Positions 11,198 through 62,799 of a stretch of 64,000 bases of DNA are shown one piece after another. The position numbers were made by a program, and so were the translations under genes. Below the pieces are notes generated by a model that ran no database searches, had not been told where the DNA came from, and saw nothing but the letters and a program-made list of their open reading frames with translations. Each line of letters starts with the position of its first letter. The first letter of the stretch is position 1. This DNA comes from a virus: positions 1-64,000 of the IMG/VR virus record IMGVR_UViG_3300025418_000694. One strand, 5' to 3'.

Positions 11198-14100
11198 CTA
11201 AAACGCTCCTAACAATAAATCCGTTGGGGAGAACGGATAAGTTGTGGTTACTGTTGGTGTATCTGTTCCCGCCATAATTCTTCCGCTGAACTGTGAACCT
11301 GCTGGAACTGATTCAGAGAAAGCAATATAACCATCATCATCTACCCTAAAACCATCCCAAGGTAGTGGGGAGTCCCACACTACTGAGGAATAATTTACTG
11401 TTTGAACTATACCATTTATAGTGACTAAAAGTCTCAATGGATTGGTAATAGTTTGTTTGGCACCTTGATAGGTGGGTATAAATCGGTTTTCGACTCCATC
11501 AAAGCTATATTGAAGGTTGTCTAATGGGGTGACTTGTGTCGTGCTGGTATCTAATGAGCCATCGCCTTTAACAAATTGGGAAGACGTTCCTCCAGAAGTA
11601 ATATAAGAAGTAGCCGTTAAGTTACCCCTAGAGTCAATTTTTGCTAATGGCGTACCGCTTGAGTTTTGCCATTCAGTAAGGTTGGCAGTTTGGGAAGCAT
11701 TTGCTTGAACCACTATTGGGGTAATAGCGGCAGTTGGGGCAACGACAGAAACAACTGCTGATATTTGAGCGGTTCCGCCAGTACCAGCAACGTTGGTAAA
11801 TCCTGAACCTACTACGGTAAAGGTGGTAGATGTTGCGGCAGTCACTATCCAAGTACCATTGTAAGTACCGCCAGTAACACCAGCGATAGTTACTTTTTGC
11901 CCGACTTGAATTAACGATGTTCCGCCATAGGTAAAGACGGCAACTGTGGCAGAGGTATAAGCAGCGGATGAAATAGCAGTTGTAATAGAACCAACTACTG
12001 CTGTTGTGTTACCAGCAAATAATTGACCCGCTGCGTTAAATCCTGAAATGACTGTACCAGAACCGTTTTGGTTTTGAAGCATATCTCCGCTTTGGGCAGA
12101 ACTTGACCTAAGCGCCATAATTATACTTGTTGAACCGTTTGGACCAAAATTATTTCTTGCACCATAAGGCGCAGTAGTTCCGCCGTAAATTCCATAAAGA
12201 GTTTTTAAGATACCAAACTGGTCAACAGTTAATGCGTAAGAAGTTCCTGCTTGCGTAAAGGAAGCCATATTTGCATTAGAGCCATTTGGTATAGTTGCAG
12301 TTAATGGCACTACTCCAGTAGCGGTAGGGGCTATTGTGTTACCTGCTGTAAAGGTATTCGTTGTAGCCAATTCAGGCACAACGGTTGTATCTACAATCAG
12401 GTTACTTGCTGAAGTAGTAAGCCCTGTGCCAACATTGAGTGCAATTGTTGACACACCATCGTATGTAATTGGGGCTGTTGCTGTTGCTATACCAGTCGTA
12501 CCAATTGTGCCTTGGTTACCTTGTATTCCCTGTGTGCCTTGAAGCCCCTGAAGACCTTGTGTACCTTGGTTTCCTTGAGTACCTTGAATACCTTGTGTAC
12601 CTTGCGGCCCTTGAATACCCTGCGTACCTTGAGTACCTTGTACTTGTATTCCTTGCGTACCTTGAACGCCTTGCGTTCCTTGTAAACCTTGTAATCCCTG
12701 AGTACCTTGAGTACCAGTAGTTCCTTGTGAACCTGTAAATCCTTGTAAACCAATAAGTCCCTGTAGACCTACAAAACCTTGGGTACCAGTAGCGCCTTGA
12801 ATTCCTGTAAGTCCTTGAGAACCAGTTGTACCTTGAGCACCATTAGCTCCATTAGTACCTGCAGTTCCCTGTGTACCTGTAAAACCTTGTAGTCCAGTTG
12901 TTCCTTGGTTGCCTTGAAGACCTTGTAAACCAGTAAGGCCCTGTAAACCATTTGTTCCTTGAGTTCCTTGAATACCTGTAGAACCTGTAATTCCTTGCGC
13001 GCCTGTCGTTCCCTGCGCTCCTGTAGAACCTGTTGTTCCAATTGCGCCCTGAGTTCCAACTGCACCTTGAATTCCTGTAGTGCCTTGGATTCCTTGTGCG
13101 CCCGTAGCTCCTGTTGAGCCTTGTGTTCCTTGTGGACCGATACCACCAGTTTGAGCAAAGGTAATAGCATCTGTACCAATGATAATCCAGCCGTTAGATT
13201 GGCTACCTACTGAGTTTTCAATCCAGTTAGTACTTGATTGCGTTGTACCAGCAACTACATAAAGAAAATCGCCGTACTCGACTTCGCCATTAACAGAGTT
13301 GTTGTAATCTGATGCGCGAGTGAGGATATAGGGAGTTGGACCTGAACCTTGTTGAGTAATTACATAAATACCATTTTGTGTTGTAGTAGTTTGATTCTTA
13401 ACAAGTACGCGGTCATTAGTAGTAAATGAAACACCATCAACTGAACCACGACCATTGCTAGTAGCAGTAAGAGTTGCGCCTACGCCATAACCACCATCAG
13501 CACCTAAAGTACCTGCGGTGTAAGTAGCAGCAAGATTGGCAGTTGTAGCCATACGAGCAGAAGCGTGTGCGTTGTTAGAAGCTAATGGGCCGACTAATCC
13601 CTGAACGCCTTGTGTACCTTGAACGCCAAAAGAGCCTTGTATTCCTGTATTTCCTTGAATACCCTGAGTGCCTGTACCAGTAATTCCTTGAATACCAGTA
13701 GTTCCTTGGGTACCTTGGACGCCTTGCGTTCCCTGATTTCCCTGCAGACCTTGTAGACCTATTAATCCTTGTAAACCTGTTGTTCCTTGATTACCTTGAA
13801 TCCCTTGTAAACCTGTTGTTCCTTGATTACCTTGAATCCCTTGGTTACCTTGAACTCCTTGAGTACCTTGGATACCTTGCGTCCCCTGTAATCCAACAAG
13901 ACCTTGCGTACCAGTCGCACCCTGCATACCTGTAGTGCCTTGTGTACCAGTGCTTCCTTGTAAACCTAAGAATCCTTGAGTACCCTGCGCGCCCTGTATA
14001 CCAGTTGTTCCTTGAGGACCCTGAACTCCTTGTACTCCCTGCAGACCTTGAATACCCTGGGTACCTTGTGGACCTTGAATGCCCTGAGTTCCCTGAGGTC

Positions 14101-15586
14101 CTTGAACTCCTTGCGTACCTTGCAAACCACTTACGTTAAATGTCCAAGCAGCAAATGTTCCAGAACCACCAGTTCCAGTTACGTTTACAGTAATGCTTGA
14201 ATCAGTTGTTAAGGCGGTAATCTGACCAAACATAAAGTTAGTTGGCGTGCCTGTGTTAGTAACAACAACATATTGACCAACTGTATAAGCGCCAGAATTT
14301 GTAACAGTAAATGCTTTAGAGCCAGTACCAATTAAAAATGATGTAGCAGAAGTTACTCCAATAAATGAACGGCCTTGGATACCCTGAGTTCCTTGAACTC
14401 CTTGAATACCCTGCGTACCTTGTGGTCCTTGGATACCTTGTATACCTGTAGTGCCTTGAGGCCCTTGAATACCTTGTGTACCTTGCACTCCTTGAAGTCC
14501 TTGAATGCCTTGAATACCTTGAGTTCCTTGCGGTCCTTGAATTCCTTGAGTTCCCTGTGGACCTTGTAAGCCTTGAACACCAGCAGTTGAGAATGTCCAT
14601 TGTGAGTAAGTACCAGAACCACCAGTAAGAATAGAGTTAACAGTAATACTGGAATCTAATGTTATTGCGGTGATAATGCCTTCAACCCAGTTTGAAAGCC
14701 CTGGGGTGTTAGAGACACGTACTGTTTGACCTAAACCAAAAGCGCCTGAATTAGTTACGTTAAATGTTAGAGAGCCAGTTGTAACCGCGTTAGGTGTAGG
14801 TGAAGTTACTCCTAGATATGAACGGCCTTGAATGCCCTGTGTGCCTTGCACACCTTGTGTTCCCTGTGTTCCTTGAACACCTTGCAGCCCTTGAGTACCT
14901 TGGGTTCCCTGTGGTCCCTGAACGCCCTGTATACCCTGCGTACCTTGTGGTCCCTGTAAACCTTGCGTGCCCTGAGTTCCCTGTAAACCCTGAGTTCCTT
15001 GCACACCTTGTAGCCCTTGTGTGCCTTGCGTACCTTGTGGACCTTGGATAATTCCAACGTTAACCCAAGCTCCACCTTCCCATACATACAGGTATGGGTC
15101 AACAATATAACCATCACCATTATTACCTGTTGGATGCGCAGCAACTAAAGCGGCATACGTTGGGTATGAACCAAGGATTACTACAGATGTACCAGCGTTA
15201 CCTTGTATTGAAAGTCCCTGCGTACCTTGTGTACCAGTCTTTCCCTGCGCACCCGTATAACCCTGAACACCATTATGTCCAGAAGAACCTTGTAGGCCAT
15301 AAAAACCTTGGATACCTTGTAAGCCTTGAGTACCTTGTGCTTGGTTAAAACCGCCGCCCTGTAAACCTTGAGAACCTTGTACACCTTGACCTGCGTATTG
15401 TCCATGAATACCTTGGGTGCCTTGACCGCCCTGAACACCCTGTACTCCCTGTATTCCTTGCGTGCTAAATCCAGGAAGTCCGCCTGTTTGTGTTGAAGGG
15501 ATTACGTTAACAACTACTGGGGCAGGAGTGACTACTTGGATAGCGCATTGGCATGGCCAGTTATTACAAGAGTGACAGTAACTCAA
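11198..15586 (-). CDS. Collagen-like tail fibre/whisker protein (1462 aa)
   Basis: Long (G-X-Q)n tracts interrupted by globular domains; DRVLVKNQT..QNGIY fibre motif. Confidence 0.85.
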   Translation of the reverse strand: MSYCHSCNNWPCQCAIQVVTPAPVVVNVIPSTQTGGLPGFSTQGIQGVQGVQGGQGTQGIHGQYAGQGVQGSQGLQGGGFNQAQGTQGLQGIQGFYGLQGSSGHNGVQGYTGAQGKTGTQGTQGLSIQGNAGTSVVILGSYPTYAALVAAHPTGNNGDGYIVDPYLYVWEGGAWVNVGIIQGPQGTQGTQGLQGVQGTQGLQGTQGTQGLQGPQGTQGIQGVQGPQGTQGTQGLQGVQGTQGTQGVQGTQGIQGRSYLGVTSPTPNAVTTGSLTFNVTNSGAFGLGQTVRVSNTPGLSNWVEGIITAITLDSSITVNSILTGGSGTYSQWTFSTAGVQGLQGPQGTQGIQGPQGTQGIQGIQGLQGVQGTQGIQGPQGTTGIQGIQGPQGTQGIQGVQGTQGIQGRSFIGVTSATSFLIGTGSKAFTVTNSGAYTVGQYVVVTNTGTPTNFMFGQITALTTDSSITVNVTGTGGSGTFAAWTFNVSGLQGTQGVQGPQGTQGIQGPQGTQGIQGLQGVQGVQGPQGTTGIQGAQGTQGFLGLQGSTGTQGTTGMQGATGTQGLVGLQGTQGIQGTQGVQGNQGIQGNQGTTGLQGIQGNQGTTGLQGLIGLQGLQGNQGTQGVQGTQGTTGIQGITGTGTQGIQGNTGIQGSFGVQGTQGVQGLVGPLASNNAHASARMATTANLAATYTAGTLGADGGYGVGATLTATSNGRGSVDGVSFTTNDRVLVKNQTTTTQNGIYVITQQGSGPTPYILTRASDYNNSVNGEVEYGDFLYVVAGTTQSSTNWIENSVGSQSNGWIIIGTDAITFAQTGGIGPQGTQGSTGATGAQGIQGTTGIQGAVGTQGAIGTTGSTGAQGTTGAQGITGSTGIQGTQGTNGLQGLTGLQGLQGNQGTTGLQGFTGTQGTAGTNGANGAQGTTGSQGLTGIQGATGTQGFVGLQGLIGLQGFTGSQGTTGTQGTQGLQGLQGTQGVQGTQGIQVQGTQGTQGIQGPQGTQGIQGTQGNQGTQGLQGLQGTQGIQGNQGTIGTTGIATATAPITYDGVSTIALNVGTGLTTSASNLIVDTTVVPELATTNTFTAGNTIAPTATGVVPLTATIPNGSNANMASFTQAGTSYALTVDQFGILKTLYGIYGGTTAPYGARNNFGPNGSTSIIMALRSSSAQSGDMLQNQNGSGTVISGFNAAGQLFAGNTTAVVGSITTAISSAAYTSATVAVFTYGGTSLIQVGQKVTIAGVTGGTYNGTWIVTAATSTTFTVVGSGFTNVAGTGGTAQISAVVSVVAPTAAITPIVVQANASQTANLTEWQNSSGTPLAKIDSRGNLTATSYITSGGTSSQFVKGDGSLDTSTTQVTPLDNLQYSFDGVENRFIPTYQGAKQTITNPLRLLVTINGIVQTVNYSSVVWDSPLPWDGFRVDDDGYIAFSESVPAGSQFSGRIMAGTDTPTVTTTYPFSPTDLLLGAF
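12500..15460 (-). repeat. Coding 9-bp-period collagen repeats (G-X-Q)
   Basis: (ccttg/ccctg)N4 tandem pattern on the plus strand, in several blocks. Confidence 0.9.
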
Positions 15587-35375: not shown

Positions 35376-35499
35376 GGACCAATCCTATCATAAGCGCGAT
35401 GATCCTCACCTTGGGCTACTGCCTAACAAACTTAGGTCATACCTGTGGATTTCACCTGGCAGCCATGTCTATTTGTCGACAATTTAACCCTAGGGGGGT

Positions 35500-35574
35500 C
35501 TGAGAATAGTCTGAGAATAGTCTGAGAATAGGCTGTGAATAATGGGCGGGAATAAATAGGTGATAGGTTTGGTT
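35500..35574 (+). promoter_or_regulatory. P1: four 11-bp-phased CTGAGA/CTGTGA boxes plus GGGAAT-N17-GGTT promoter of the sigma gene
   Basis: Boxes at 35500, 35511, 35522, 35533; GGGAAT at 35548; GGTT at 35571. Confidence 0.8.
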
Positions 35575-35616
35575 CACTAAGCAAGTGAGCAAGGGGCTCA
35601 CTGATAGGGGTACAAA

Positions 35617-36111
35617 ATGGACAAGGCACAACTAAGCAAGGACATACTAAACTATCAAGGGATGCTTTATGGTTACGCCATGAAACTAACTAATGGCAAT
35701 TCACATGACTCTCTCGATTTGGTACAGGATACTTTCGAGAAAGCGCTCGCTAATAGTGAGAAGTTTGACGGGGCTAATCTTCAAGCGTGGCTTCACACTA
35801 TCCTCCGCAATCAATTCATCAACGTTTACCGCAAGCAGTCTCGCATGGTAGTGGCTGATGAAACCGCGCTAGTGGAATTAGAAACAGAAACCGCGCCTAG
35901 CGCAGAGTACCGCGCAATTTTCAATCACTTTTCGCCTAAAGTCTCTCAAGCCTTACAGGCTCTAGGGGATGACTTTCTAAAGGTTGTCTACCTAGTAGAC
36001 ATAGAGGGTTTCACTTATGAGGAAACCGCTAATCAACTAGGCGTTAAAACCGCCACAGTAGGCACACGCCTAAACCGCGCACATAAGGTTCTAAGGGAGG
36101 CTCTAGCATGA
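35617..36111 (+). CDS. ECF sigma factor, SigH/SigR-like
   Basis: Region 2 DLVQDTFEKA, NLQAWLHTILRNQFINVYRK; region 4 DIEGFTYEETANQLGVKTATVGTRLNRA. Confidence 0.92.
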   Translation: MDKAQLSKDILNYQGMLYGYAMKLTNGNSHDSLDLVQDTFEKALANSEKFDGANLQAWLHTILRNQFINVYRKQSRMVVADETALVELETETAPSAEYRAIFNHFSPKVSQALQALGDDFLKVVYLVDIEGFTYEETANQLGVKTATVGTRLNRAHKVLREALA

Positions 36112-36200
36112 ACCCACTCACAAGCGGACTCCCAATCACAATTCTGTGGTTGGGGGCGAGCATAAGTTTCTACCTACTGATTAGGGACTTAACGAAATAA
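36108..36200 (+). CDS. 30-aa single-TM peptide coupled to the sigma gene
   Basis: ATGA overlap, GGGAGG RBS; MNPLTSGLPITILWLGASISFYLLIRDLTK. Confidence 0.55.
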   Translation: MNPLTSGLPITILWLGASISFYLLIRDLTK

Positions 36201-36202
36201 GA

Positions 36203-36230
36203 AGGGGCGCGGGAAACCGCGCCTCTCTCT
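36203..36230 (+). terminator. Hairpin closing the sigma transcript
   Basis: AGGGGCGCGG-GAAA-CCGCGCCTCT. Confidence 0.65.
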
Positions 36231-36332
36231 CGATTCCCCGTAGGGGTATGGGGAGGGTGGGCCAACACAAACAATTGGCATTGGGAGCAAGGCATTAGGG
36301 AAGTGTTTACAATTCCCTAAAAGTGTTTATTC

Positions 36333-36396
36333 CTGAGAGATTCCTGAGAATTATCTGGAAATTACCTTAGGGAATAATAACCAACCCTAACCCGTT
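36333..36396 (+). promoter_or_regulatory. P2: three phased boxes plus GGGAAT-N17-CGTT
   Basis: CTGAGA at 36333 and 36344, CTGGAA at 36355; GGGAAT at 36370; CGTT at 36393. Confidence 0.82.
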
Positions 36397-36437
36397 ATAC
36401 AGGTACAAGGTCGGAAACGCCGACAAAAGGGGAAAAA

Positions 36438-37227
36438 ATGAACCACTTATACAAAAGCAATTATTCAAGCCTTACTGATGTAGATGTACAGATGGATGTA
36501 CGCGACAGCACCAACGGGGATGTCATGTTCGAGATGAACATGTCTAGTTGGCATGATAATAATACCTATCATGTCATGGAGCAATTCATCCTTACAGAGG
36601 CGCAGGCGCGCTCACTAAAAGAAGCACTAGAGACTTATCTAGAGGCTAAGTATGATGAGCGTGAAGCAGTTGCCCTAGCGCAATTTGACGCAGTACGTGA
36701 CGACCTATTTGAAGTGGAGGCAGAATAGTGGAAACACTATCAGCACTAGCAATTAAGAAAGATTCGGTGACTAGAGAAATGCTAGCCAGCGAGTTAGATG
36801 AAATGAACGCAGATTCACGCGCCTATTGTCTAATGCAGGTAATCGGACACCTAGAGTTAGACAAGGCACAAGGTCAAGAGTTATTCCCACTCTGGACAGC
36901 GTGGGTTACTGCTCGCAGTATTAACAATGACGCTTACGGATTGAGGGACTAATGGGACATAATTTCGCACAAGAATTGGCTAGCGGGGAGTTAACACTCC
37001 CCCTAGAGGAGGCTATAGCGATTCACCTAAGAAGTAATCACTATCCACCCGTACCGCTTTCTATGGTAACCCCCTGTATAGAAGCCATAGATAAATGCAA
37101 CGAGGGTGATTCTGGCGCGCTAATAGACTTACCCGATCCAATTAAATGGAAAGGCGCAAGCCAAGCACCAGCGTATGCAGTAATAGAAGGTCATCACTTA
37201 GAACCATGGGTTCAATGGGATGACTAA
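36438..37227 (+). other. Three small early ORFs (36438-36728, 36728-36952, 36952-37227)
   Basis: Coupled ORFs with RBSs, under P2. Confidence 0.7.
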
Positions 37228-37228
37228 C

Positions 37229-37363
37229 CCCAGATAGGGAGGCTACCCCCTAGCCTCCCTAATTTGAAATGCTTGCCAAAAGCAAGGCGTGTTATGCCGC
37301 AGCCATAACCGAGGACTCACTCGAACTGGGATTAAAGCCACCAAATCGGTGGCTTTACTATTT
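37229..37363 (+). ncRNA. Candidate multibranch RNA followed by a terminator
   Basis: CCCAG/CTGGG closes four hairpins; TAAAGCCACC/GGTGGCTTTA terminator at 37333-37357. Confidence 0.35.
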
Positions 37364-37445
37364 AACTCCCTGACGGCATTGGGTTAGGCATTGACCAACA
37401 CAAACATTAGGCTTTCGGGTATTGGCGCAAACTCCCCAAACAAAA

Positions 37446-37519
37446 CTGAGAGATTTCTGAGAATTGGCTGAGAATTGCCTGGAAATAGCGGCGGGAATAA
37501 ATTGGGGTTATGAGCCGTT
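37446..37519 (+). promoter_or_regulatory. P3: four phased boxes plus GGGAAT-N17-CGTT
   Basis: CTGAGA at 37446, 37457, 37468, CTGGAA at 37479; GGGAAT at 37493; CGTT at 37516. Confidence 0.85.
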
Positions 37520-37563
37520 ATACAGATGAATAGCCACACGGGTTATTCGGGAAAGGTAATCAA

Positions 37564-38082
37564 ATGCTAACTGATACACAATCTCGCGAGATTAACCATC
37601 TCGTATTGCAATTATCTGCTGATTTAACAGTAGCGCCCGACTTTATAGTTGAGGCTATCCGCGAGGATGAAAGCGTAAACGCGCTAGTCTATCGCTGGCT
37701 CACACGTGGGGGAGTGGAATACCGCTCAATCCTAGACCTACTCAATGGGATGTTCTAATGATTAAATTCCCACACACAATTAAATTGGTTGCTGAATTAG
37801 ATGAAAATAATCCAAGCACCAAGGCGCTCCAAGCGCTACCAGAATACCTACAGCATAAATTGCTTGAAGAAGCGTTTATTGGAGCACTAAATAGATTAAG
37901 CGTGTTTGATACCATAAATGAGGGCTCAACATGGGGAATAGTTAAGGTGGATACCAATGGATGAACAAGCCGAGCGTATCAAGGAGCGCATGTCCGAGGA
38001 GTTAGATGACATCCTAGCCAATGGAGACCTGCAAGCGTTCGAGGAATTATTCGAGGATCGAGACCCGTTCGAATTCCTATAA
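37564..38082 (+). other. Three small early ORFs (37564-37758, 37758-37964, acidic 37957-38082)
   Basis: Coupled ORFs; the last reads MDEQAERIKERMSEELDDILANGDLQAFEELFEDRDPFEFL. Confidence 0.65.
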
Positions 38083-38094
38083 CAAAAGTGGGGC

Positions 38095-38121
38095 GGGAAT
38101 AAAAAGCCCGCCCCAATCGTT
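38095..38121 (+). promoter_or_regulatory. P4: GGGAAT-N17-CGTT embedded in a GC-rich inverted repeat
   Basis: GGGAAT at 38095, CGTT at 38118; TGGGGCGGG/CCCGCCCCA arms. Confidence 0.75.
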
Positions 38122-38143
38122 ACAGCAACAGAAGGGAGGAAAC

Positions 38144-38476
38144 ATGGAAAATGAAGTAGATGTGCTGCTTAAGCGCCTAAAAGAATTGGGCGTAGAGGCT
38201 AAGCCCGTTCGTGTCAATGAGCGCCAAAAGGCTACGCTACAAAAAATTGTAGAGGCTGATGTCGCTATTAAAGAAGCGCGGGAAACTATCAAGCAGGCTA
38301 CAGAAAATTGGCGCGTATCTAGGGAAACACTAGACCGCCTATTAGTAGAAGCCCGTAAGATGAAAGTAACCCAAGCAGAAATTGGCAAAGCCCTTGGTAT
38401 TAGCAATGGCTCTGTATCAAGTAGGACAATTACGGCACGCCGTAGAGTCCGTAAAAGAAACCGCACCAAGAAATAA
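38144..38476 (+). CDS. Coiled-coil plus helix-turn-helix DNA-binding protein
   Basis: GGAGG RBS before ATG at 38144; VTQAEIGKALGISNGSVSSR HTH. Confidence 0.75.
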   Translation: MENEVDVLLKRLKELGVEAKPVRVNERQKATLQKIVEADVAIKEARETIKQATENWRVSRETLDRLLVEARKMKVTQAEIGKALGISNGSVSSRTITARRRVRKRNRTKK

Positions 38477-38595
38477 CCGATAAATTTCTGAGGCTATCCG
38501 TCGCCAATCGAAGCCGTAATTGCCTCAGTTCCCCAAAGTAGGTGGTTGGTTCCCACCTGCTAGAGCGCGGGTATACCTTCCCCCCGCGCTCACCC

Positions 38596-38771
38596 CTAAA
38601 ATGTTTGTGTTGAACCCGCCCGCCCACATGCCTGAAGGGAATAAGCCAATTGGACAATTGTTAAACAATTGTCCAACACAAACATTCCTAGCCCAAAGTG
38701 AACATTAGGTGAACATTACCTGAGAGAAACCTGTGAATAGAGATGGGAATAATGAGAGGGTAGTATCCGTT
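38596..38771 (+). repeat. Regulatory module copy A (inverted CAACACAAACA, palindrome, phased boxes, promoter P5)
   Basis: Aligns with 39751-39937; boxes at 38698, 38709, 38720, 38731; GGGAAT at 38745; CGTT at 38768. Confidence 0.85.
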
Positions 38772-38819
38772 CTACTATTGAAAGCGAAACCAACCAAGCG
38801 CTTTCAGAATAGGACAAAA

Positions 38820-39656
38820 ATGAACACAACTGACACTCTTACAGTATCAAACGAGTTTACTGTAGGCGAACTATGGGAAGCAGTCTGGGGCTGTGACGGA
38901 GCGGGCATGGTCTATTGGTGCTCTAAAATCCGCACTCCAGAAGGCAAGGACATCTATCTTTTCCTCAACAAAGGTGATGAATTTGTCCCCAACCCTCAAC
39001 CTGTCAAAATTTATGACACGACAGGCGTTACTCCTAAAACCTACGTGGTAACTGTCGAGGATTTGCGCCGAGGCTACGAACTAGCACTCAAAGCAGGTCA
39101 GACACATTGCGGAGGTTATCCTCTAGAAATTGACGACGCCGACTCCTGTTTCGGTGACATGGTTATACAGTACGCAATCTTTAACGAATTAGTCTACGGA
39201 TAGGAAGGGAAAACATGAGCGAAGTAGTATGGCAGAGCCAAATCACAGAGGACATGGTTCAAGATGTAAGCGCCCGTTCGTTCTTATTTGAGGAATTGGA
39301 CGACGCGGTAATGCGAATTTGTCAGGAATACGGGGTAAAATCCCTATGAGCCGTAGACACTTTCGCGCCCTAGCCGAAGCCCTAAAGGACTCAGGCGCTA
39401 GTTATCAGACTGTGGCTGCTATTGCTAGAGTCTGTGCCAATGAAAACCCAAGATTTGACTCCTCTAAGTTCTTTGAGGCGTGTGGCGTATGACTACCTAT
39501 AACACAGTAGTGCGCTTATACGCCTCAATAGAGGCAGAAACAGAGGAACAAGCAGAGTCAAGACTCCATGACTACATGAATAGCGTGGGTCTAGTTCCTA
39601 GTAATTGCGTTGTAGTCGCCGATTATGACGTAACAGACTTCGACAAGGAGGATTGA
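38820..39656 (+). other. Four small early ORFs (38820-39203, 39215-39349, 39346-39492, 39489-39656)
   Basis: RBSs and ATGA overlaps; the last three read by hand. Confidence 0.65.
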
Positions 39657-39750
39657 CGGAGACTAGCCGAGCCTGTCCTAGCCGTAATTGTATCCGTCAA
39701 GGGCGGTGGGAAGTAAAAAGCCCACCGCTATACAAAAAGCGCGGAAATGT

Positions 39751-39937
39751 CTAAATTGTTTGTGTTGACCCACCCACCCACGTACCTAAATACGACATCT
39801 TATTCCGCAATAAGCGGAATAAGCATTTGGGCTAATTGTTTAACAATTAGCCCAACACAAACATTCCCGCCCCAAGATGAACATTAGATGAACATTAACT
39901 GAGAGATTGCTGAGAGATTACTGAGAGAAGGCTGAGA
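39751..39937 (+). repeat. Regulatory module copy B with six phased boxes
   Basis: ATGAAC at 39877 and 39888; CTGAGA at 39899, 39910, 39921, 39932. Confidence 0.85.
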
Positions 39938-40089
39938 GCCAATCTATAGTAGAGTGAGAGTCTGCTATAGATTAAAAATGGACACGCCTTCGGCTACTGT
40001 CTAAAGAACGAAGTGAGAGTGTAGCGATACGTCCAGATTATTGCTATATGTCCGATTTGTCTTATATGATAACAATCTCTGCGATTACT

Positions 40090-40152
40090 GTTCACCTTCC
40101 GTTCACCTTCCGTTCATCTACTTAGGGGAATATATATCTACTCTATTCCGTT
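40090..40152 (+). promoter_or_regulatory. P6: three PHO-box-like GTTCAY units plus GGGAAT-N17-CGTT
   Basis: GTTCACC at 40090 and 40101, GTTCATC at 40112; GGGAAT at 40126; CGTT at 40149. Confidence 0.82.
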
Positions 40153-40211
40153 CTATCCATGTACGACAAACACTAACCGCGCCAATGGCGCACTATTAGA
40201 AGGAAGGCAGT

Positions 40212-41591
40212 ATGACACTAGCAGTATTGGTGGAGACCTTAGAGGGCGAAGCGCGCTCACAGACTCTCCTATTCCCTCACAAGGGAGAAGTGCGGATTTA
40301 TCACCGCCTCTCAACAGGTCAGGCAGGACGTGGACAGACATGGTCTCACCTATCTGATATAGAGGATTTGCCCGACACTCTCCTATCCAAGAAACCCGTA
40401 GCCGTTGTCCTCACCGAGCGCGATACTGCTCTCGTTGATACAGGACTCGTTACCAATATCGGTGCTAAGGCTCTCTATGCCTATGAAAGTGCCGACCCTG
40501 TTACCGCGCCAATCTCACACAGAGATAGCGTTCTAGACCTTAAAACTCGATTCGAGTCAGGAGACAACTCTCTCTCTGATTTGATTACCGATAAACGTCG
40601 TAATCAGGGTGTAATTCTAACCCCGTTGAGCGCGACCCCGAACGTGACCTTTATTAAGCAAAGTGAGCCTATCAAGCAAGAAGTAACAATAGGCGCACAC
40701 GAAAGCACACGTCTCGCCTATGAAAATATGATTACTGTTCCCGACCAAAAGTGGTCACGTGATTATATAAACCGCTACTTTGAGGACGGCAAGTCCGACT
40801 TCGAGATTTATGACTACGCAGATTCTAACGATATAAACGTTCTAATCGAAGGTGGCGCTGGTTCAGGCAAGACCATGAGTGTAATCGCCTATGCCTCTGC
40901 TAGACAGAAGCGTTATTTCAACGTCTCCTCTAATGCTGGTATTGACCCTAGCCAACTATTCGGGCGCTGGATTCCTAGAGAGGACGGACATGGTTATCGC
41001 TGGCAGGACGGCGCAGTCACTCTCCTAGTTCGACATGGCGGAGTTCTACTCCTCAATGAAGTGAACTTCATGCCCGAACGTATTATGACAGTTCTCTATT
41101 CCTTACTAGATGACCGACGTGAGATTCAATTATTGGATAACGGCGGTGAGGTTATTAAGGCTCACAAAGACCTGCTAATCGTGGCAGACATGAACGCTGG
41201 TTATCGTGGCACTCACGAACTATCACAGGCTAACAATGACAGGTGGAAAATTAAACTAGAGTTTCCTTACGATAAGAAAATCGAAAGCAAACTAATCAAG
41301 TCTAAGGCTCTGCTGGAATTGGCTCAAAAGTTACGTGACCGATTCGACCTAGATGAACTCACAACTCCAATCTCGACACGTGGTCTAGTAGCACTACAAA
41401 ATAACGTGACGGGTCTAGGCTTGAACTTCGCAATTACTTCTTACGTCAATGGATTCGACAAAGATGAACGCGTGGCAGTTCGTCAGGTAATCGAAACAAT
41501 GAAGTGGAATATCGCAACCGACTTCGGTGTAAAGGTTGAAGTCGAACCTACAGATTCAATCGTAACCGAGACAGTAAAGGTGGATAACTAA
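40212..41591 (+). CDS. MoxR/CbbQ/CobS-like AAA+ ATPase
   Basis: Walker A GGAGSGKT, WQDGAVT, LLLNEVN, MNAGYRGT..LSQA..DRW, ISTRGL. Confidence 0.9.
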   Translation: MTLAVLVETLEGEARSQTLLFPHKGEVRIYHRLSTGQAGRGQTWSHLSDIEDLPDTLLSKKPVAVVLTERDTALVDTGLVTNIGAKALYAYESADPVTAPISHRDSVLDLKTRFESGDNSLSDLITDKRRNQGVILTPLSATPNVTFIKQSEPIKQEVTIGAHESTRLAYENMITVPDQKWSRDYINRYFEDGKSDFEIYDYADSNDINVLIEGGAGSGKTMSVIAYASARQKRYFNVSSNAGIDPSQLFGRWIPREDGHGYRWQDGAVTLLVRHGGVLLLNEVNFMPERIMTVLYSLLDDRREIQLLDNGGEVIKAHKDLLIVADMNAGYRGTHELSQANNDRWKIKLEFPYDKKIESKLIKSKALLELAQKLRDRFDLDELTTPISTRGLVALQNNVTGLGLNFAITSYVNGFDKDERVAVRQVIETMKWNIATDFGVKVEVEPTDSIVTETVKVDN

Positions 41592-41592
41592 T

Positions 41593-43551
41593 ATGGGTCG
41601 CCGTCGCCGTCGCAATAATGGACTAATCTCTGAATTGGATTCCCTATCCACAGGACGTGGACTCCATGAACGTATCAACGATAACAATGAGTGGGAACTC
41701 TATGATGAGGAAAGCGGTTTAGCAGTAACCCATGCCGAACTAGTCGCAAAATACACAGAGCGCGCTAACCGACTCAATGCGGTGGCACAGGTGTACGAAC
41801 GTGTAGATAGGATTCTCACCAATGAGGATATTACTGTTCGTGTAATCAACGATAAGAATATGGATACCAATGCCCGTTCCAATGGAAAGGATATTGAACT
41901 CAATGCCAATCTAATTGAGGATTTATCTGACGAAAGTATTATGAGCCTTCATGGTCTGAACTATCACGAACTAGCGCACGTGGAGTTCTCTCCCCGTCAG
42001 GGTTCAGACTTAGGAATATACGTTCGCGATAATAAACTGTTTAAGGCAATCGCAATTCTAGAGGAAGGTCGCGCTGAACAATTACTGCTCAAAAAGTATC
42101 CTTCAATTCGACCTTACCTAGAAGCAAGTGTTTATACCTACGTGTTAGCAGACCAGCCTAGTGATTGGGGAACTAAGTTTCATCTAATCACAGGTCGCAC
42201 CTACTTACCACTAGAAATTAGGCAATCTATTCTAGACAAAGCAATCGTTCAATACGGATATGAAATTGTCTCCAACGTTCACTCGATTATCCATGCCTAT
42301 CGTGACTTAGTGTTCCCTGCTGATTTCGATAAGGCTAAAGAACTCGCACACAGACTCGCCAATATACTCGGACATGATGAGGATTCTAATAATTCAGGTT
42401 CAAGTTCTAGTGAAGGTTCAGAGGAGTCTAAGGACTCAAAAGGTATCACAGGTGTAGGCGGTGGGTGCGGTCTGCCTAGTAAGGGCAGACCAGCAAGCGG
42501 AAAGGAGCAGGCTAAGTATCAAAGCCAGCCCTCTAATGATAAATTAGAAAGCCTCAACACAAACAGGTCGCAAAGCGATAGCGGTTCAGGTAGCGAAATT
42601 GAAACTCAATCGGTCAATGATTCAGATTCAGAAATTACTGCCAAAGATGTTGAAGTGGCTCATGCTCTCAATGAGCGCATGAACCAACTAAAGCAGGACT
42701 CTCGCGTTAAGCGCGAAGTCAAGGACACTCGAAATGCGATTCTCGGTTCAGGTGAGGCTAAGGCTGATATTCCAACAGGTGACACTATGGAAATCGCACC
42801 TTCTATGGGAGCAATCTCAATGGCAAAGCGATTCAGCACAGAGTTAGAACGCATAGTGCGAAACAATGACCCTGCTTGGGTAGGTCGCACTAGAAGTGGT
42901 CGCCTGAATATCTCTCGCACCATGAACCCTGATGTCAATGCTATCTCTGAAATGTTCGACCAATGGGATATTGGTAATGAAGCCACCGATATAGAAGCGG
43001 TTATCCTTACCGATAATTCAGGTTCAATGGGCGGTTCAATGAAAGCAGTATGCGAGAACACTTGGATTCTAAAGCGCGCTATCGAAAGCATAGAAGGTTC
43101 AGTAACCGCCTTCTCCTTCGATTCTGATACTGAACTGCTCTACTCTAAAGATGATAAGGCTAAGTCTAGAGTAATGAAGTTCGTGGGTTCACGTGGAAGC
43201 ACTAACCCACTACGCGGAATTATCGAAGCAGACCGCATATTGACCTCATCTAAAAAGTCAATCAAGATTCTATTTATAGTTACTGACGGGGATTGGGAGC
43301 GCCAAGAACAATGCGACGACCTAATCAAGTCTATGAACAATAAGGGATTCCTGACGTGCGTAGTGTTCTTAGGTGATTTCAAGTCCTATCAGAACCTAAT
43401 CGAGCAGTCTGCTAGAGGTGATGACCGCGCTACTAATTACTTAAAGGCAATACGTCACCACGCCAAAGTGTTCCACGCTGTTACCAACACCGCAGATATT
43501 CTCAAAGTGGCAAGTATGCTAGTCAAATCAACTCTAAAGAAGGTGGCTTAG
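41593..43551 (+). CDS. CobT-like vWA protein with N-terminal HExxH motif
   Basis: HELAH, LEEGRAE, SGRLN, MIDAS DNSGSM, GST, VTDG. Confidence 0.88.
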   Translation: MGRRRRRNNGLISELDSLSTGRGLHERINDNNEWELYDEESGLAVTHAELVAKYTERANRLNAVAQVYERVDRILTNEDITVRVINDKNMDTNARSNGKDIELNANLIEDLSDESIMSLHGLNYHELAHVEFSPRQGSDLGIYVRDNKLFKAIAILEEGRAEQLLLKKYPSIRPYLEASVYTYVLADQPSDWGTKFHLITGRTYLPLEIRQSILDKAIVQYGYEIVSNVHSIIHAYRDLVFPADFDKAKELAHRLANILGHDEDSNNSGSSSSEGSEESKDSKGITGVGGGCGLPSKGRPASGKEQAKYQSQPSNDKLESLNTNRSQSDSGSGSEIETQSVNDSDSEITAKDVEVAHALNERMNQLKQDSRVKREVKDTRNAILGSGEAKADIPTGDTMEIAPSMGAISMAKRFSTELERIVRNNDPAWVGRTRSGRLNISRTMNPDVNAISEMFDQWDIGNEATDIEAVILTDNSGSMGGSMKAVCENTWILKRAIESIEGSVTAFSFDSDTELLYSKDDKAKSRVMKFVGSRGSTNPLRGIIEADRILTSSKKSIKILFIVTDGDWERQEQCDDLIKSMNNKGFLTCVVFLGDFKSYQNLIEQSARGDDRATNYLKAIRHHAKVFHAVTNTADILKVASMLVKSTLKKVA

Positions 43552-43664
43552 GTGTTCTTTATAGTATCTATGGGGCTAATTCTAGTAATAGCGTTAGCCC
43601 TAATCATAACTGAAGTAGATGATTCACTGAAGGACGAGTGGGAAGCGTGGGAAAGGAAACAGAA

Positions 43665-44438
43665 ATGGTAATTCAATTCGGAACTAGCGCGGATAATCTA
43701 GATTATGCCGTACTACAGAAGGAAACGCTGAACCAATTAAAGGGCGCACTACTAGCAGAGCAGACTCGCAACGAGTATCTAATCAACTTAGTGGACACCG
43801 CTATTGACTACTCGTTCTATTTAACAGATGAAAGGATTAAATAAATGAGCGAACACCACTTTGTAATCAAGTTCAACACAAACAATGGGCGGTTCGATTG
43901 GGATTCAGATACCGAGTCGGCTCGATTCCCCGAAGGCGCTATCTATCTTTCAGAGGTCAATAAATGGGTGGATTCCTCATATAACGATTCTCTGAACCAA
44001 ATAGACACACAAGCAGGTGAGGCGCTTAGTCAAACCCTAAACGTATTAAACCTGATGTACGAACAAGCAGGAAACAAGGAATAAAAGTAAAGAGTCAAAT
44101 GTTATATAGAGATATAAAGAGAGGAATAAATAATGCCACACCCACTAAGCGGTCTAACGCCCGACGAAAAGCGTAAGTTATTCAAGATGTTCGAGATTAT
44201 GTCTGAACCTAGTGATACTTCACATGAGGACATGATGTACGTCGTGAATAACGTTAGTCCTATGGTCGAGATACTAAAGAAAACTATCAGCAATCGCATG
44301 ATAGATAGCGGTATCAGCGCAGAGGAAACAGACGCTCTATTAAGTACGTTGATAGGAGTATCTAATATGGCTGGCGGTGTTAGTTTCGCCGACTTCGCCC
44401 ACACAGAAAGCATGGCAGAGGATTTATCAGATAACTAG
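43665..44438 (+). other. Small early ORFs (43665-43844, 43845-44084, 44133-44438)
   Basis: ORFs with RBSs. Confidence 0.65.
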
Positions 44439-44441
44439 AGT

Positions 44442-44619
44442 TGGATAGACACTTGGATAAGATAGACCTAATCTAACTACCAACAGACTTCAAGTTAGTC
44501 ACATGAACAGTTTAATTACTTAGTAATAAGACTCCGAGTAAGTTGAGGTATCAGGGTCGCAAAGACGAAAGGACTTGCGAAGGAGTTAGTTCCTAAACGT
44601 TGTACCTAGTGTCTATCTA
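44442..44619 (+). ncRNA. Candidate ~180-nt structured RNA
   Basis: 12-bp closing stem TGGATAGACACT/AGTGTCTATCTA; inner stems CTAACT/AGTTAG, GACT/AGTC, TCGCAA/TTGCGA with cGAAAg. Confidence 0.55.
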
Positions 44620-44647
44620 CGCAATCTAATCGAAAGAAGGTAAGTAA

Positions 44648-44938
44648 ATGGGAATAGTAAGTCCCGAACTCGCTCACAGATACGAGCGTGAGTTAGTAGG
44701 CTCTACTCTAATTAACGAGTATGGCGACACTATCGTTAAGGCTAAACACCTTAAAGATAATACGTTTCTAGTCATAGCGGTAAGACCCGTAAAGACTAAT
44801 CCGTACCAAGTATCAAAGGTAATCTATATTTCAGAGGACTTCTTAAACCCCTACAACGAAACAGGGGCAGAGACTTTGGAAGAAGCAGAAATTATATTTA
44901 ATGAAAGGATTGAAAGTGGCAAAATACTCAATAGTTAA
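44648..44938 (+). CDS. Hypothetical protein, paralogue of 45095..45412
   Basis: YERELVG..L.N...KAKHL...LVIAVR...TLEEAE. Confidence 0.7.
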   Translation: MGIVSPELAHRYERELVGSTLINEYGDTIVKAKHLKDNTFLVIAVRPVKTNPYQVSKVIYISEDFLNPYNETGAETLEEAEIIFNERIESGKILNS

Positions 44939-45095
44939 AACTGTTACTTACGATTTGGAAGCCGTAATCTATTCTGATTTATCAGAGGACGAACTAAAGC
45001 AGAGTCTAAAGCATGATGATTCAGATGTTGAGTACGAACAAATAGAGGGTAATGATGTTCAGTTCTATCTAGATTTATTAGAGGACGACGAGTAA
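44916..45095 (+). CDS. Small acidic protein
   Basis: GTG start with AAGGA RBS; D/E-rich. Confidence 0.6.
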   Translation: MAKYSIVKTVTYDLEAVIYSDLSEDELKQSLKHDDSDVEYEQIEGNDVQFYLDLLEDDE

Positions 45096-45412
45096 TGTCT
45101 AATAAACTTACAGACCTGTACGAAAAAGAAATGGTAGGCGCTGAACTTACGAATAAAGCGGTGGTAATCAAATCTAAACACCTAGAGGGCAGTAAGTATA
45201 TTGTCCTTGCCGTTCGTAAAGTTCCAGCAGAACCTCTCTATGATGAGCGAGATGTTGAGAAAACAACTCCTATTTATCACCGCCCATATATTGTATGGCA
45301 GGTGGATAAAAAGACTATGCGACCTATGAGTGGAGAGTATGCTCTGACACTAGAGGAAGCAGAGGAAGTCTATGAAATATATGGGAATAAAAAGAAGTTC
45401 TTAATCGTTTAA
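45095..45412 (+). CDS. Hypothetical protein, paralogue of 44648..44938
   Basis: YEKEMVG..L.N...KSKHL...IVLAVR...TLEEAE. Confidence 0.7.
   Translation: MSNKLTDLYEKEMVGAELTNKAVVIKSKHLEGSKYIVLAVRKVPAEPLYDERDVEKTTPIYHRPYIVWQVDKKTMRPMSGEYALTLEEAEEVYEIYGNKKKFLIV
45383..45409 (+). promoter_or_regulatory. P7: GGGAAT-N17-CGTT inside the 3' end of a CDS
   Basis: GGGAAT at 45383, CGTT at 45406, 30 nt before ATG 45439. Confidence 0.75.
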
Positions 45413-45438: not shown

Positions 45439-45921
45439 ATGGGCATGGACGTATATGGAAAGAACGCTACGGACGAACGTGGCGAGTACTTTAGAAACAA
45501 TGTATGGTGGTGGAGACCACTATGGGACTACTGCGAGCAGGTCTATCCACCTTGTCGTGAGATAGACGGACACTCAAATAGCGGTGCTGGCTTTGATGTA
45601 GAAGGCGCACACGCACTACGCGACGCACTTATTAAAGAGATTAGTAGTGGTCGCACCTATGAATATGAGAAAGAACGCCAAGAGTTCTTAGATTCTATTC
45701 CTGATGAGACTTGTACCTTATGTGAAGGCATGGGAATAGTTCAAGTTAAAGAGGGCTGGTTCGATTACGTAGAGGGAGAAGTTACCTTCCGCGACCCATG
45801 TAATGCCTGTAATGGAACTAAGGTCAAGAGACCTTTCGAGTGTAATTATGGATTCAGCGTAGAGAACGTAAAAGAGTTCTGCCAATTCCTAACTACCTGC
45901 GGTGGATTCGAGATTTGCTAA
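45439..45921 (+). CDS. Phage protein with DnaJ-type Zn finger insert
   Basis: GEYFRNNVWWWRPLW; CTLCEGMG and CNACNGTK. Confidence 0.75.
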   Translation: MGMDVYGKNATDERGEYFRNNVWWWRPLWDYCEQVYPPCREIDGHSNSGAGFDVEGAHALRDALIKEISSGRTYEYEKERQEFLDSIPDETCTLCEGMGIVQVKEGWFDYVEGEVTFRDPCNACNGTKVKRPFECNYGFSVENVKEFCQFLTTCGGFEIC

Positions 45922-48129: not shown

Positions 48130-48159
48130 AAACCCCCCGATTCGTTCACGGGGGGTTTT
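48130..48159. terminator. Bidirectional terminator between the early block and nrdJ
   Basis: AAACCCCCCG/CGGGGGGTTTT. Confidence 0.85.
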
Positions 48160-48164
48160 ACTAT

Positions 48165-62481: not shown

Positions 62482-62799
62482 TCACGACTCTTTGGTTAAT
62501 ACCCACTCCTTTAGTGTCATACCTGCGCGTGTCGCCTTACGCTTAAGGGCATTACGCTCACGGTGACTCATGCCACCCCAAATTCCGTGCGTGTCTTCCA
62601 TCTCCTCCGCATACAGTAAGCACTGCTTACGTACGGGGCATTCAGGAAGACCGTCTTTACCGTAGCAAATAGCTTTTGCTCGGTCAGCAATATCTTTATA
62701 TTGGTCTTTATCTCTTGGCGGGTACCAAGTATTAGTGTCTATTCCTCGACACTTGGCTTTGTATCTCCAAGGTTCTGGTCCGAGATCTTCGTCGTACAA
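62482..62799 (-). CDS. whiB: WhiB-family transcription factor
   Basis: W...AKC, AKAIC, CPVRKQC, GIWGG..ER. Confidence 0.93.
   Translation of the reverse strand: MYDEDLGPEPWRYKAKCRGIDTNTWYPPRDKDQYKDIADRAKAICYGKDGLPECPVRKQCLLYAEEMEDTHGIWGGMSHRERNALKRKATRAGMTLKEWVLTKES

Follow-up and report, generated by a model that had tools for sequence, protein, structure and literature searches.

A predicted extracytoplasmic function sigma factor and seven putative SigH/SigR-type promoters in an uncultured relative of Streptomyces myophages, and a sister phage with the same promoter class

SigH of Mycobacterium tuberculosis and Corynebacterium glutamicum and SigR of Streptomyces coelicolor are extracytoplasmic function (ECF) sigma factors of the ECF12 type that serve in thiol and heat stress and are paired with a zinc-associated anti-sigma (ZAS) factor, RshA or RsrA; sigmas of the SigH/SigR/SigE type are native to the phylum Actinobacteria. 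Bacillus phages reportedly carry SigF/SigG-like sigma genes that act on host sporulation genes. In coliphage phiEco32, the host core polymerase is redirected by a small ECF-like sigma, gp36, to a promoter that recurs in the phage genome (PMC7881722). Here we describe a plus-strand gene block at 35.5–48.2 kb of an uncultured phage genome, in which a predicted ECF sigma gene lies among seven copies of a putative promoter of the SigH/SigR type. The window analyzed is the first 64 kb of the 95,817-bp IMG/VR virus record IMGVR_UViG_3300025418_000694 (G000 below), which is rated 100% complete.

Phage ECF sigmas with cognate promoters are already known, and the core of this finding is another member of that group. 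Like gp36 and the sigmas of Kuravirus and of Salmonella phage 7-11, the locus combines a small phage ECF sigma with a repeated phage promoter, here from sequence only. The phage sigma has no detectable sequence relation to the phiEco32, Kuravirus or 7-11 sigmas: these are absent from the 29 matches of a tblastn search of 50,697 phage records, none of which is a Kuravirus or an actinophage, and the best of which is 37% identical and belongs to an unannotated gut phage. Moreover, the phiEco32-type sigmas are outliers that have a promoter type to themselves, whereas the promoters described here are of the host-stress-sigma type and are present in a sister phage that has no sigma. The likeness to the SigF/SigG-like sigmas of Bacillus phages, a comparison made from description only, is an overlap in specificity with a host alternative sigma; the apparent targets here are the phage's own genes rather than host sporulation genes. 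What seems new is that the promoter type is identical with the consensus of a host stress sigma and that a sister phage without a sigma shares the promoter class.

The window has exactly seven matches to GGGAAT-N17-(C/G)GTT, all of them on the plus strand, which begin at 35548, 36370, 37493, 38095, 38745, 40126 and 45383 (P1 to P7). In dinucleotide shuffles the count averaged 0.15 and never exceeded 1. The complete record holds the identical seven forward sites, no reverse site and no match to a backwards control pattern. The looser GGAAT-N18-GTT matches nine forward and two reverse positions genome-wide, with eight of the nine forward matches inside the block. An earlier reading of this DNA from sequence alone had listed the same seven positions with their strand and constant spacing, and had expected the motif to be confined to the block; both claims held, the strict motif with all seven of its sites. 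A weight matrix built from the seven sites scores them at 30–34 bits and the next best position anywhere at 11.6 or less, a gap that is somewhat inflated since the matrix takes in the spacer. The extended consensus is GGGAATAA-N15-(C/T)(C/G)GTT, with a spacer that is fixed in length and unconserved in its bases. At P1 the -10 element is TTGGTT, with G at -12, while P2 to P7 carry C at that position (CCGTT in four, TCGTT in two). From GTT to the start codon the gaps are 42, 41, 44, 22, 48, 59 and 29 nt for P1 to P7, and the start codons have purine-rich ribosome-binding sites; the 30–60 nt estimated before was therefore roughly right, the measured range being 22–59 nt. The first copy does precede the sigma gene, as had been noted.

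That gene, an open reading frame (ORF) at 35617–36111 (+), encodes 164 amino acids. Pfam recognizes regions 2 and 4 only (Sigma70_r2 at residues 12–76, Sigma70_r4_2 at residues 111–155), and the protein reaches 88 bits with the ECF superfamily model TIGR02937, whose cutoff is 42.9; judged by these matches, it is a bona fide ECF (group 4) sigma. An AAC/AAT-type -35 with a CGT/GTT-type -10 element, the pattern looked for before an ECF sigma's own gene, is present at all seven sites, the first of them 42 nt ahead of the predicted sigma start codon. The best specific NCBIfam model is SigH_actino (TIGR02947), at 108.7 bits and so under its cutoff of 251.55, and the best PDB matches are M. tuberculosis SigH (E-values of 2e-22 and 6e-22), followed by SigE, with the domains of S. 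coelicolor SigR lower. The profile classification proposed earlier thus confirms membership in the ECF superfamily, with SigH_actino the best model yet below its threshold.

Close relatives of the phage sigma were sought widely. Among 5.8 billion proteins, nothing beyond its own cluster, in which 4 identical or near-identical sequences occur on about 23 contigs, exceeds about 44% identity. No relative was found in IMG/VR, the matches in the JGI metagenomes were all on cellular contigs, at no more than 42% identity and with no intermediate lineage, and a DNA-level search for near matches among phages returned none. When the phage sigma was placed in a tree with its 80 best homologs, taken from species-representative genomes, it came out on a long branch (1.11), outside a 20-row actinobacterial SigH/SigR clade (support 100/99) that holds Streptomyces and Mycobacteriales rows; it groups with long-branch Myxococcota rows, its exact position being unsure. 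In the actinobacterial clade, a small HxxxCxxC (ZAS) anti-sigma gene follows the sigma gene in most of the members that could be read. The phage block contains no ZAS (HxxxCxxC) ORF, and directly behind the sigma gene lies a 30-residue hydrophobic ORF (36108–36200, +), whose ATG overlaps the sigma stop codon (ATGA) and which is too short for a classical anti-sigma domain. The base composition of the sigma gene is that of its neighbors, and the gene is therefore not a recent arrival.

Both the motif and its spacing equal the published SigH/SigR consensus, GGAA(T/C)A-N17-GTT. In the M. tuberculosis SigH open complex, the -35 element is GGAAYA (-34 to -29) and the -10 element GTT (-11 to -9), which amounts to GGAAT-N18-GTT spacing (PMC6411747); the consensus of C. 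glutamicum SigH is gGGAAta for the -35 and t/cGTT for the -10 element, with confirmed promoters of the form GGAATA-N17-GTT (PMC10012870). The attribution of GGAAT-N18-GTT to SigR/SigH, given in the sequence-only reading, is accordingly borne out by the literature. The contact residues described for the M. tuberculosis complex (PMC6411747) were mapped onto the phage protein via a HMMER alignment, with the numbering (chain index minus 2) checked against named residues. N92 and I91, which read G-11, are kept as N69 and I68, and the T-10 readers I85, W81 and N88 as I62, W58 and N65. For T-9, F72 and N77 are kept as F50 and N54, T76 is replaced by Ala, and R73 falls in a one-residue gap. In region 4, R186, which reads G-34, corresponds to R154, and S182, which reads G-33, to T150, a conservative change. 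The retained residues are compatible with a predicted reading of GG...GTT.

The phage sigma is like SigH/SigR in its best structure and NCBIfam matches, in promoter consensus and spacing and in the same type of promoter before its own gene; most base-contacting residues are kept too, many of them being general to related ECF sigmas. It is unlike them in being only about 35–40% identical, in scoring 108.7 rather than 251.55 bits, in its place outside their clade and in having no ZAS gene, as well as in being phage-encoded and apparently preceding small phage genes instead of thiol-stress genes. Because the TIGR02947 score is below cutoff, the tree places it outside the clade and the ZAS partner is missing, it resembles SigH/SigR without being their ortholog; the label 'SigH/SigR-like' given to it before stands as a description of resemblance and fails as one of orthology.

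Five long relatives were examined in full. The sister phage, G004 (95,815 bp, with terminal repeats and 100% complete), is syntenic in inverted orientation at 65–75% nucleotide identity. Its counterpart of the block has three modules in which GGAATAG-N16-GGTT, 44–46 nt before a start codon, comes after CGTTATC repeats and CCTGAGAG repeats of 11-bp period; the modules include CTGAGAG arrays, and a fourth, degenerate module precedes the homolog of a gene for a 110-residue helix-turn-helix (HTH) protein of the block. The first G004 module is homologous to P1, as the left flanks of both share GGGCTACTGCCTA, CCTGGC and TTAACCCTGGGGGG and then CTGAGA, and it fronts a 52-residue ORF, not a sigma gene. 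Between the two phages the two boxes are conserved and the spacer is not. G at -12 is common to P1 and all the G004 promoters, in contrast to the C of P2 to P7.

No ECF sigma was found in G004 or in a second relative, G005: TIGR02937 returns only the HTH gene, at 16.9 bits, and a hidden Markov model built from 120 homologs and run with --max over six-frame translations found only the G000 sigma. As candidates for a cryptic sigma in G004, ORFs of 165, 163 and 189 residues were considered and rejected, with hhalign giving at most 1.5% probability against an ECF profile. Neither sigma nor motif is present in G005–G008 or in more distant relatives anchored by MoxR (about 50% identity), and the phages BRock and LuckySocke have no sigma and no enrichment of the motif. 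The element shared upstream of P1 leads to more distant relatives, whose homologous site has lost the GTT. Two sister phages with what appears to be one promoter class, equal to a host stress-sigma consensus, and with a sigma in only one of them make an unusual pair. Since the class exists in G004, which has no sigma, the simplest reading is that a host SigH/SigR/SigE-type sigma reads the G004 sites and can therefore fire P1 too; that P1 shares G at -12 with the G004 promoters fits this reading.

As to the phage and its host, the major capsid protein of G000 is 70–72% identical, and its terminase about 53% identical, to the counterparts in the Streptomyces myophages BRock, LuckySocke, Alone3, GiJojo and pSt2308. 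A WhiB-family gene at 62545–62769 (−) scores 62 bits against a cutoff of 23.6; among 14 control genomes the family was found in Corynebacterium only, and the gene is kept at 67–87% identity in the relatives G004–G007. By these comparisons the phage is a newly seen, WhiB-encoding relative of the Streptomyces BRock-like myophages. The whiB gene serves as an actinophage marker, and actinophages are abundant in fresh water (PMC10914622). G000 also encodes a PASTA-domain protein, and the closest phage matches to its CHAP endolysin come from phages of Streptomyces and Actinomyces. In view of WhiB, the PASTA protein and the kinship of capsid and terminase with Streptomyces phages, the host is probably an actinobacterium, and the 43.6% GC of the phage suggests that it is probably a low-GC environmental one; the BRock genome has 52.3% GC, with a high-GC host (PMC7453282). 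A cyanobacterial host, raised by the 44% GC and by CobS/CobT-like genes, was rejected in view of WhiB, PASTA and the Streptomyces-phage kin. The phage group is very abundant: a capsid protein 86–98% identical to that of G000 occurs on at least 598 IMG/VR contigs. No tRNAs were found, nor any Rfam family in the 64-kb window. Elsewhere in the window, a 1462-residue tail-fiber protein (11198–15586, −) has long collagen-like repeats, which dominate the repeat and motif statistics of the genome and need masking.

The motif set, its placement, the family of the predicted sigma and a sigma-less sister with the same promoter class can be read directly from the sequences, and from them we suggest a scheme that, taken whole, we consider reasonably probable: a host sigma would fire P1, and the phage sigma would read P1 to P7 with positive feedback over the block. 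Because the promoter type equals the SigH/SigR thiol/heat-stress type and the host is probably an actinobacterium, a host SigH-type holoenzyme may initiate first, at P1 and weakly at the other promoters. The phage sigma would then accumulate, bind the host core RNA polymerase and, as its family and the motif suggest, read P1 to P7. As P1 itself would belong to this regulon, positive feedback would follow, and the phage sigma, which has no recognizable anti-sigma partner, may amplify the whole block, with the repeat arrays by the -35 of five of the seven promoters implying a further regulator. Priming of P1 by a host stress sigma had been proposed in the sequence-only reading; it now has indirect support from the probably actinobacterial host and from the same promoter class in G004 without a sigma. 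A separate suggestion made there is that the phage sigma may escape the host anti-sigma RshA/RsrA. How the arrangement arose can be outlined only tentatively. Possibly, an abundant environmental actinophage lineage ties the gene block to host stress promoters of the SigH/SigR type, such that stress, whether already there or brought on by infection, turns the block on, and G000 put its own anti-sigma-free sigma of like specificity behind the first of these, making a host-dependent switch self-sustaining; P1 would have kept the host-type GGTT, with the other six changing to CGTT.

Several points weigh against the proposed scheme. Reading of the sites by the phage sigma, their priming by a host sigma and the feedback are predictions from sequence, and the host likewise is assigned from gene content. 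Even the nearest cellular sigmas share only about 40% identity with the phage sigma, which lies on its long branch outside the actinobacterial SigH/SigR clade. Most of the kept contact residues are general across the related ECF sigmas in the alignment, so that they are compatible with the proposed specificity without discriminating for it. M181 of SigH, which confers stringency at -31/-30, is Gly in the phage sigma, even though none of the seven promoters departs from T-31 and A-30. The phage sigma also has a one-residue deletion in the specificity loop. G004 was the only sigma-less relative found to have the promoter class. Finally, sigma-70-like sites were not enriched and none was found at 35377–35617, before the sigma gene, but a weak actinobacterial SigA promoter there could be missed by such a scan.

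This last point bears on a reading in which the phage sigma alone serves the seven promoters, its first molecules coming from an unrecognized housekeeping promoter or from leaky transcription, and in which G004 uses an unrecognizable factor of its own. Phage sigmas such as gp36 of phiEco32 are by standard modeled this way (PMC7881722), and actinobacterial SigA promoters, with their weak -35, are easily overlooked. We nevertheless regard it as unlikely, given the empty interval before the sigma gene, the lack of a candidate factor in G004, and a motif whose sequence and spacing are identical to the host-type consensus. In another reading, a host SigH/SigE-type sigma reads the promoters by itself, and the phage sigma acts as a decoy that soaks up RshA/RsrA or reads other promoters. 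G004, running the same promoter class without any sigma, is what this would predict, and a phage sigma that is not a SigH ortholog suits it as well. Against it stand the retention of the GG/GTT-reading residues in the phage sigma, the location of the sigma gene directly behind one such promoter, which is the usual ECF autoregulatory layout, and an unbiased bipartite-motif scan of the genome that, at low power, found no second promoter-like set; on balance it too seems unlikely. We give far less weight still to the idea that the motif is a repeated site for a DNA-binding protein or the remnant of a repeat element. The modules that hold the sites are indeed complex and rich in repeats, with palindromes and 11-bp arrays, but a two-part geometry with a fixed, unconserved 17-nt spacer, a strict relation of strand and distance to start codons, a match to an ECF consensus beside an ECF sigma gene, and conservation in G004 of the boxes but not of the spacer would all be hard to reconcile with anything other than promoters. 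The scheme of host priming followed by the phage sigma is the one that we prefer.

The additional regulator that the scheme implies would act at the repeat arrays. Direct repeats phased at 11 bp adjoin the -35 of P1, P2, P3, P5 and P6, at 35498–35541 (+; four repeats of GTCTGAGAATA that abut P1), 36329–36365, 37446–37489, 38698–38741 and 40090–40122 (the last consisting of GTTCACCTTCC repeats upstream of P6). Their units are of the CTGAGAAT type, GTGAACATTAG and GTTCACCTTCC, and their register to GGGAAT is constant at +3 or +4. They are probably binding sites of such a regulator. G000 and G004 have CTGAGAG repeats in common but carry different ones beside the -35. The GTTCACC unit presumably resembles the PhoP boxes of Streptomyces. 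A candidate binder of the arrays is the 110-residue HTH protein, which has a basic tail and is an orphan among 5.8 billion proteins except for its 27%-identical G004 counterpart, its similarity being otherwise generic. An IMG/VR scan for the array and box patterns CTGAGAAT-N3-CTGAGAAT and CCAACACAAACATTCC gave mostly chance matches.

Other modules were also noted. Right behind terminator hairpins, twin modules at 38602–38684 and 39757–39863 consist of TGTTTGTGTTG, a C-rich tract, GGAATAAG, a perfect palindrome and CAACACAAACA; the architecture is repeated with other palindromes in three G004 modules, and G005 retains only the TGTTTGTGTTG half. An orphan module at 39757–40125 has four CTGAGAG repeats and no GGAAT-N18-GTT. 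About 180 nt following it (39943–40125) are free of ORFs and show patchy conservation in G004 (CTTTCGGCTACT, GGCGATAC); no convincing conserved structure and no Rfam match was found there.

GC-rich hairpins and a canonical terminator split the block into short transcription units. P1 (35548–35574, +), whose homolog is the first block promoter of G004, heads the sigma gene, and a GC-rich hairpin at 36204–36225 (+) closes this unit. P2 (36370–36396, +) heads three small genes at 36438–37227, followed by a hairpin at 37236–37261, and P3 (37493–37519, +) three more at 37564–38082. P4 (38095–38121, +) lies 22 nt upstream of the HTH gene (38144–38476, +), whose product has weak sigma region-4 similarity and which is followed by a hairpin at 38563–38591; a gene start at 38021 would put P4 inside the coding sequence, and only the alternative start at ATG 38144, with its strong GGGAGG ribosome-binding site, leaves it intergenic. 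P5 (38745–38771, +) heads genes at 38820–39656, with a hairpin at 39703–39728, and P6 (40126–40152, +) a MoxR-like AAA+ gene (40212–41591) and a VWA gene (41593–43551). A weak eighth candidate, AGGAAT-N17-TGTT at 44077–44103 (+), has equal spacing and a poorer match and lies before a gene at 44133–44438. P7 (45383–45409, +) overlaps the last codons of the upstream gene and precedes a zinc-finger gene (45439–45921) and the remaining small genes, up to the canonical terminator at 48130–48160. The products of these units are small acidic proteins, the HTH protein, the MoxR-like AAA+/VWA pair, zinc-finger proteins and a pyrimidine-dimer-glycosylase-like protein, a predicted content typical of early or host-takeover genes.

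Three features in and beside the block stand on their own. Two small paralogous genes (44648–44938 and 45095–45412), alike in their N-terminal halves, flank a 64-residue acidic ORF. The 209-nt intergenic region at 44439–44647 lies between inverted GATAGACACT repeats and has no ECF-type promoter for the gene at 44648. Opposite P1, a leftward gene has TATGAT 11 nt ahead of its ATG (35376–35392, −), suggesting a near-leaderless mRNA, and the conserved GGGCTACTGCCTA element, common to distant relatives, lies just upstream.

The seven compact, insulated promoter/terminator units and the small, orthogonal-looking sigma could serve actinobacterial synthetic biology. If the proposed scheme is true, G004 and G000 would form a natural before/after pair for the passage of a phage from reliance on a host alternative sigma to a sigma of its own, and phage gene expression would be tied to the redox or heat stress of the host in a very abundant, uncultured group of actinophages.

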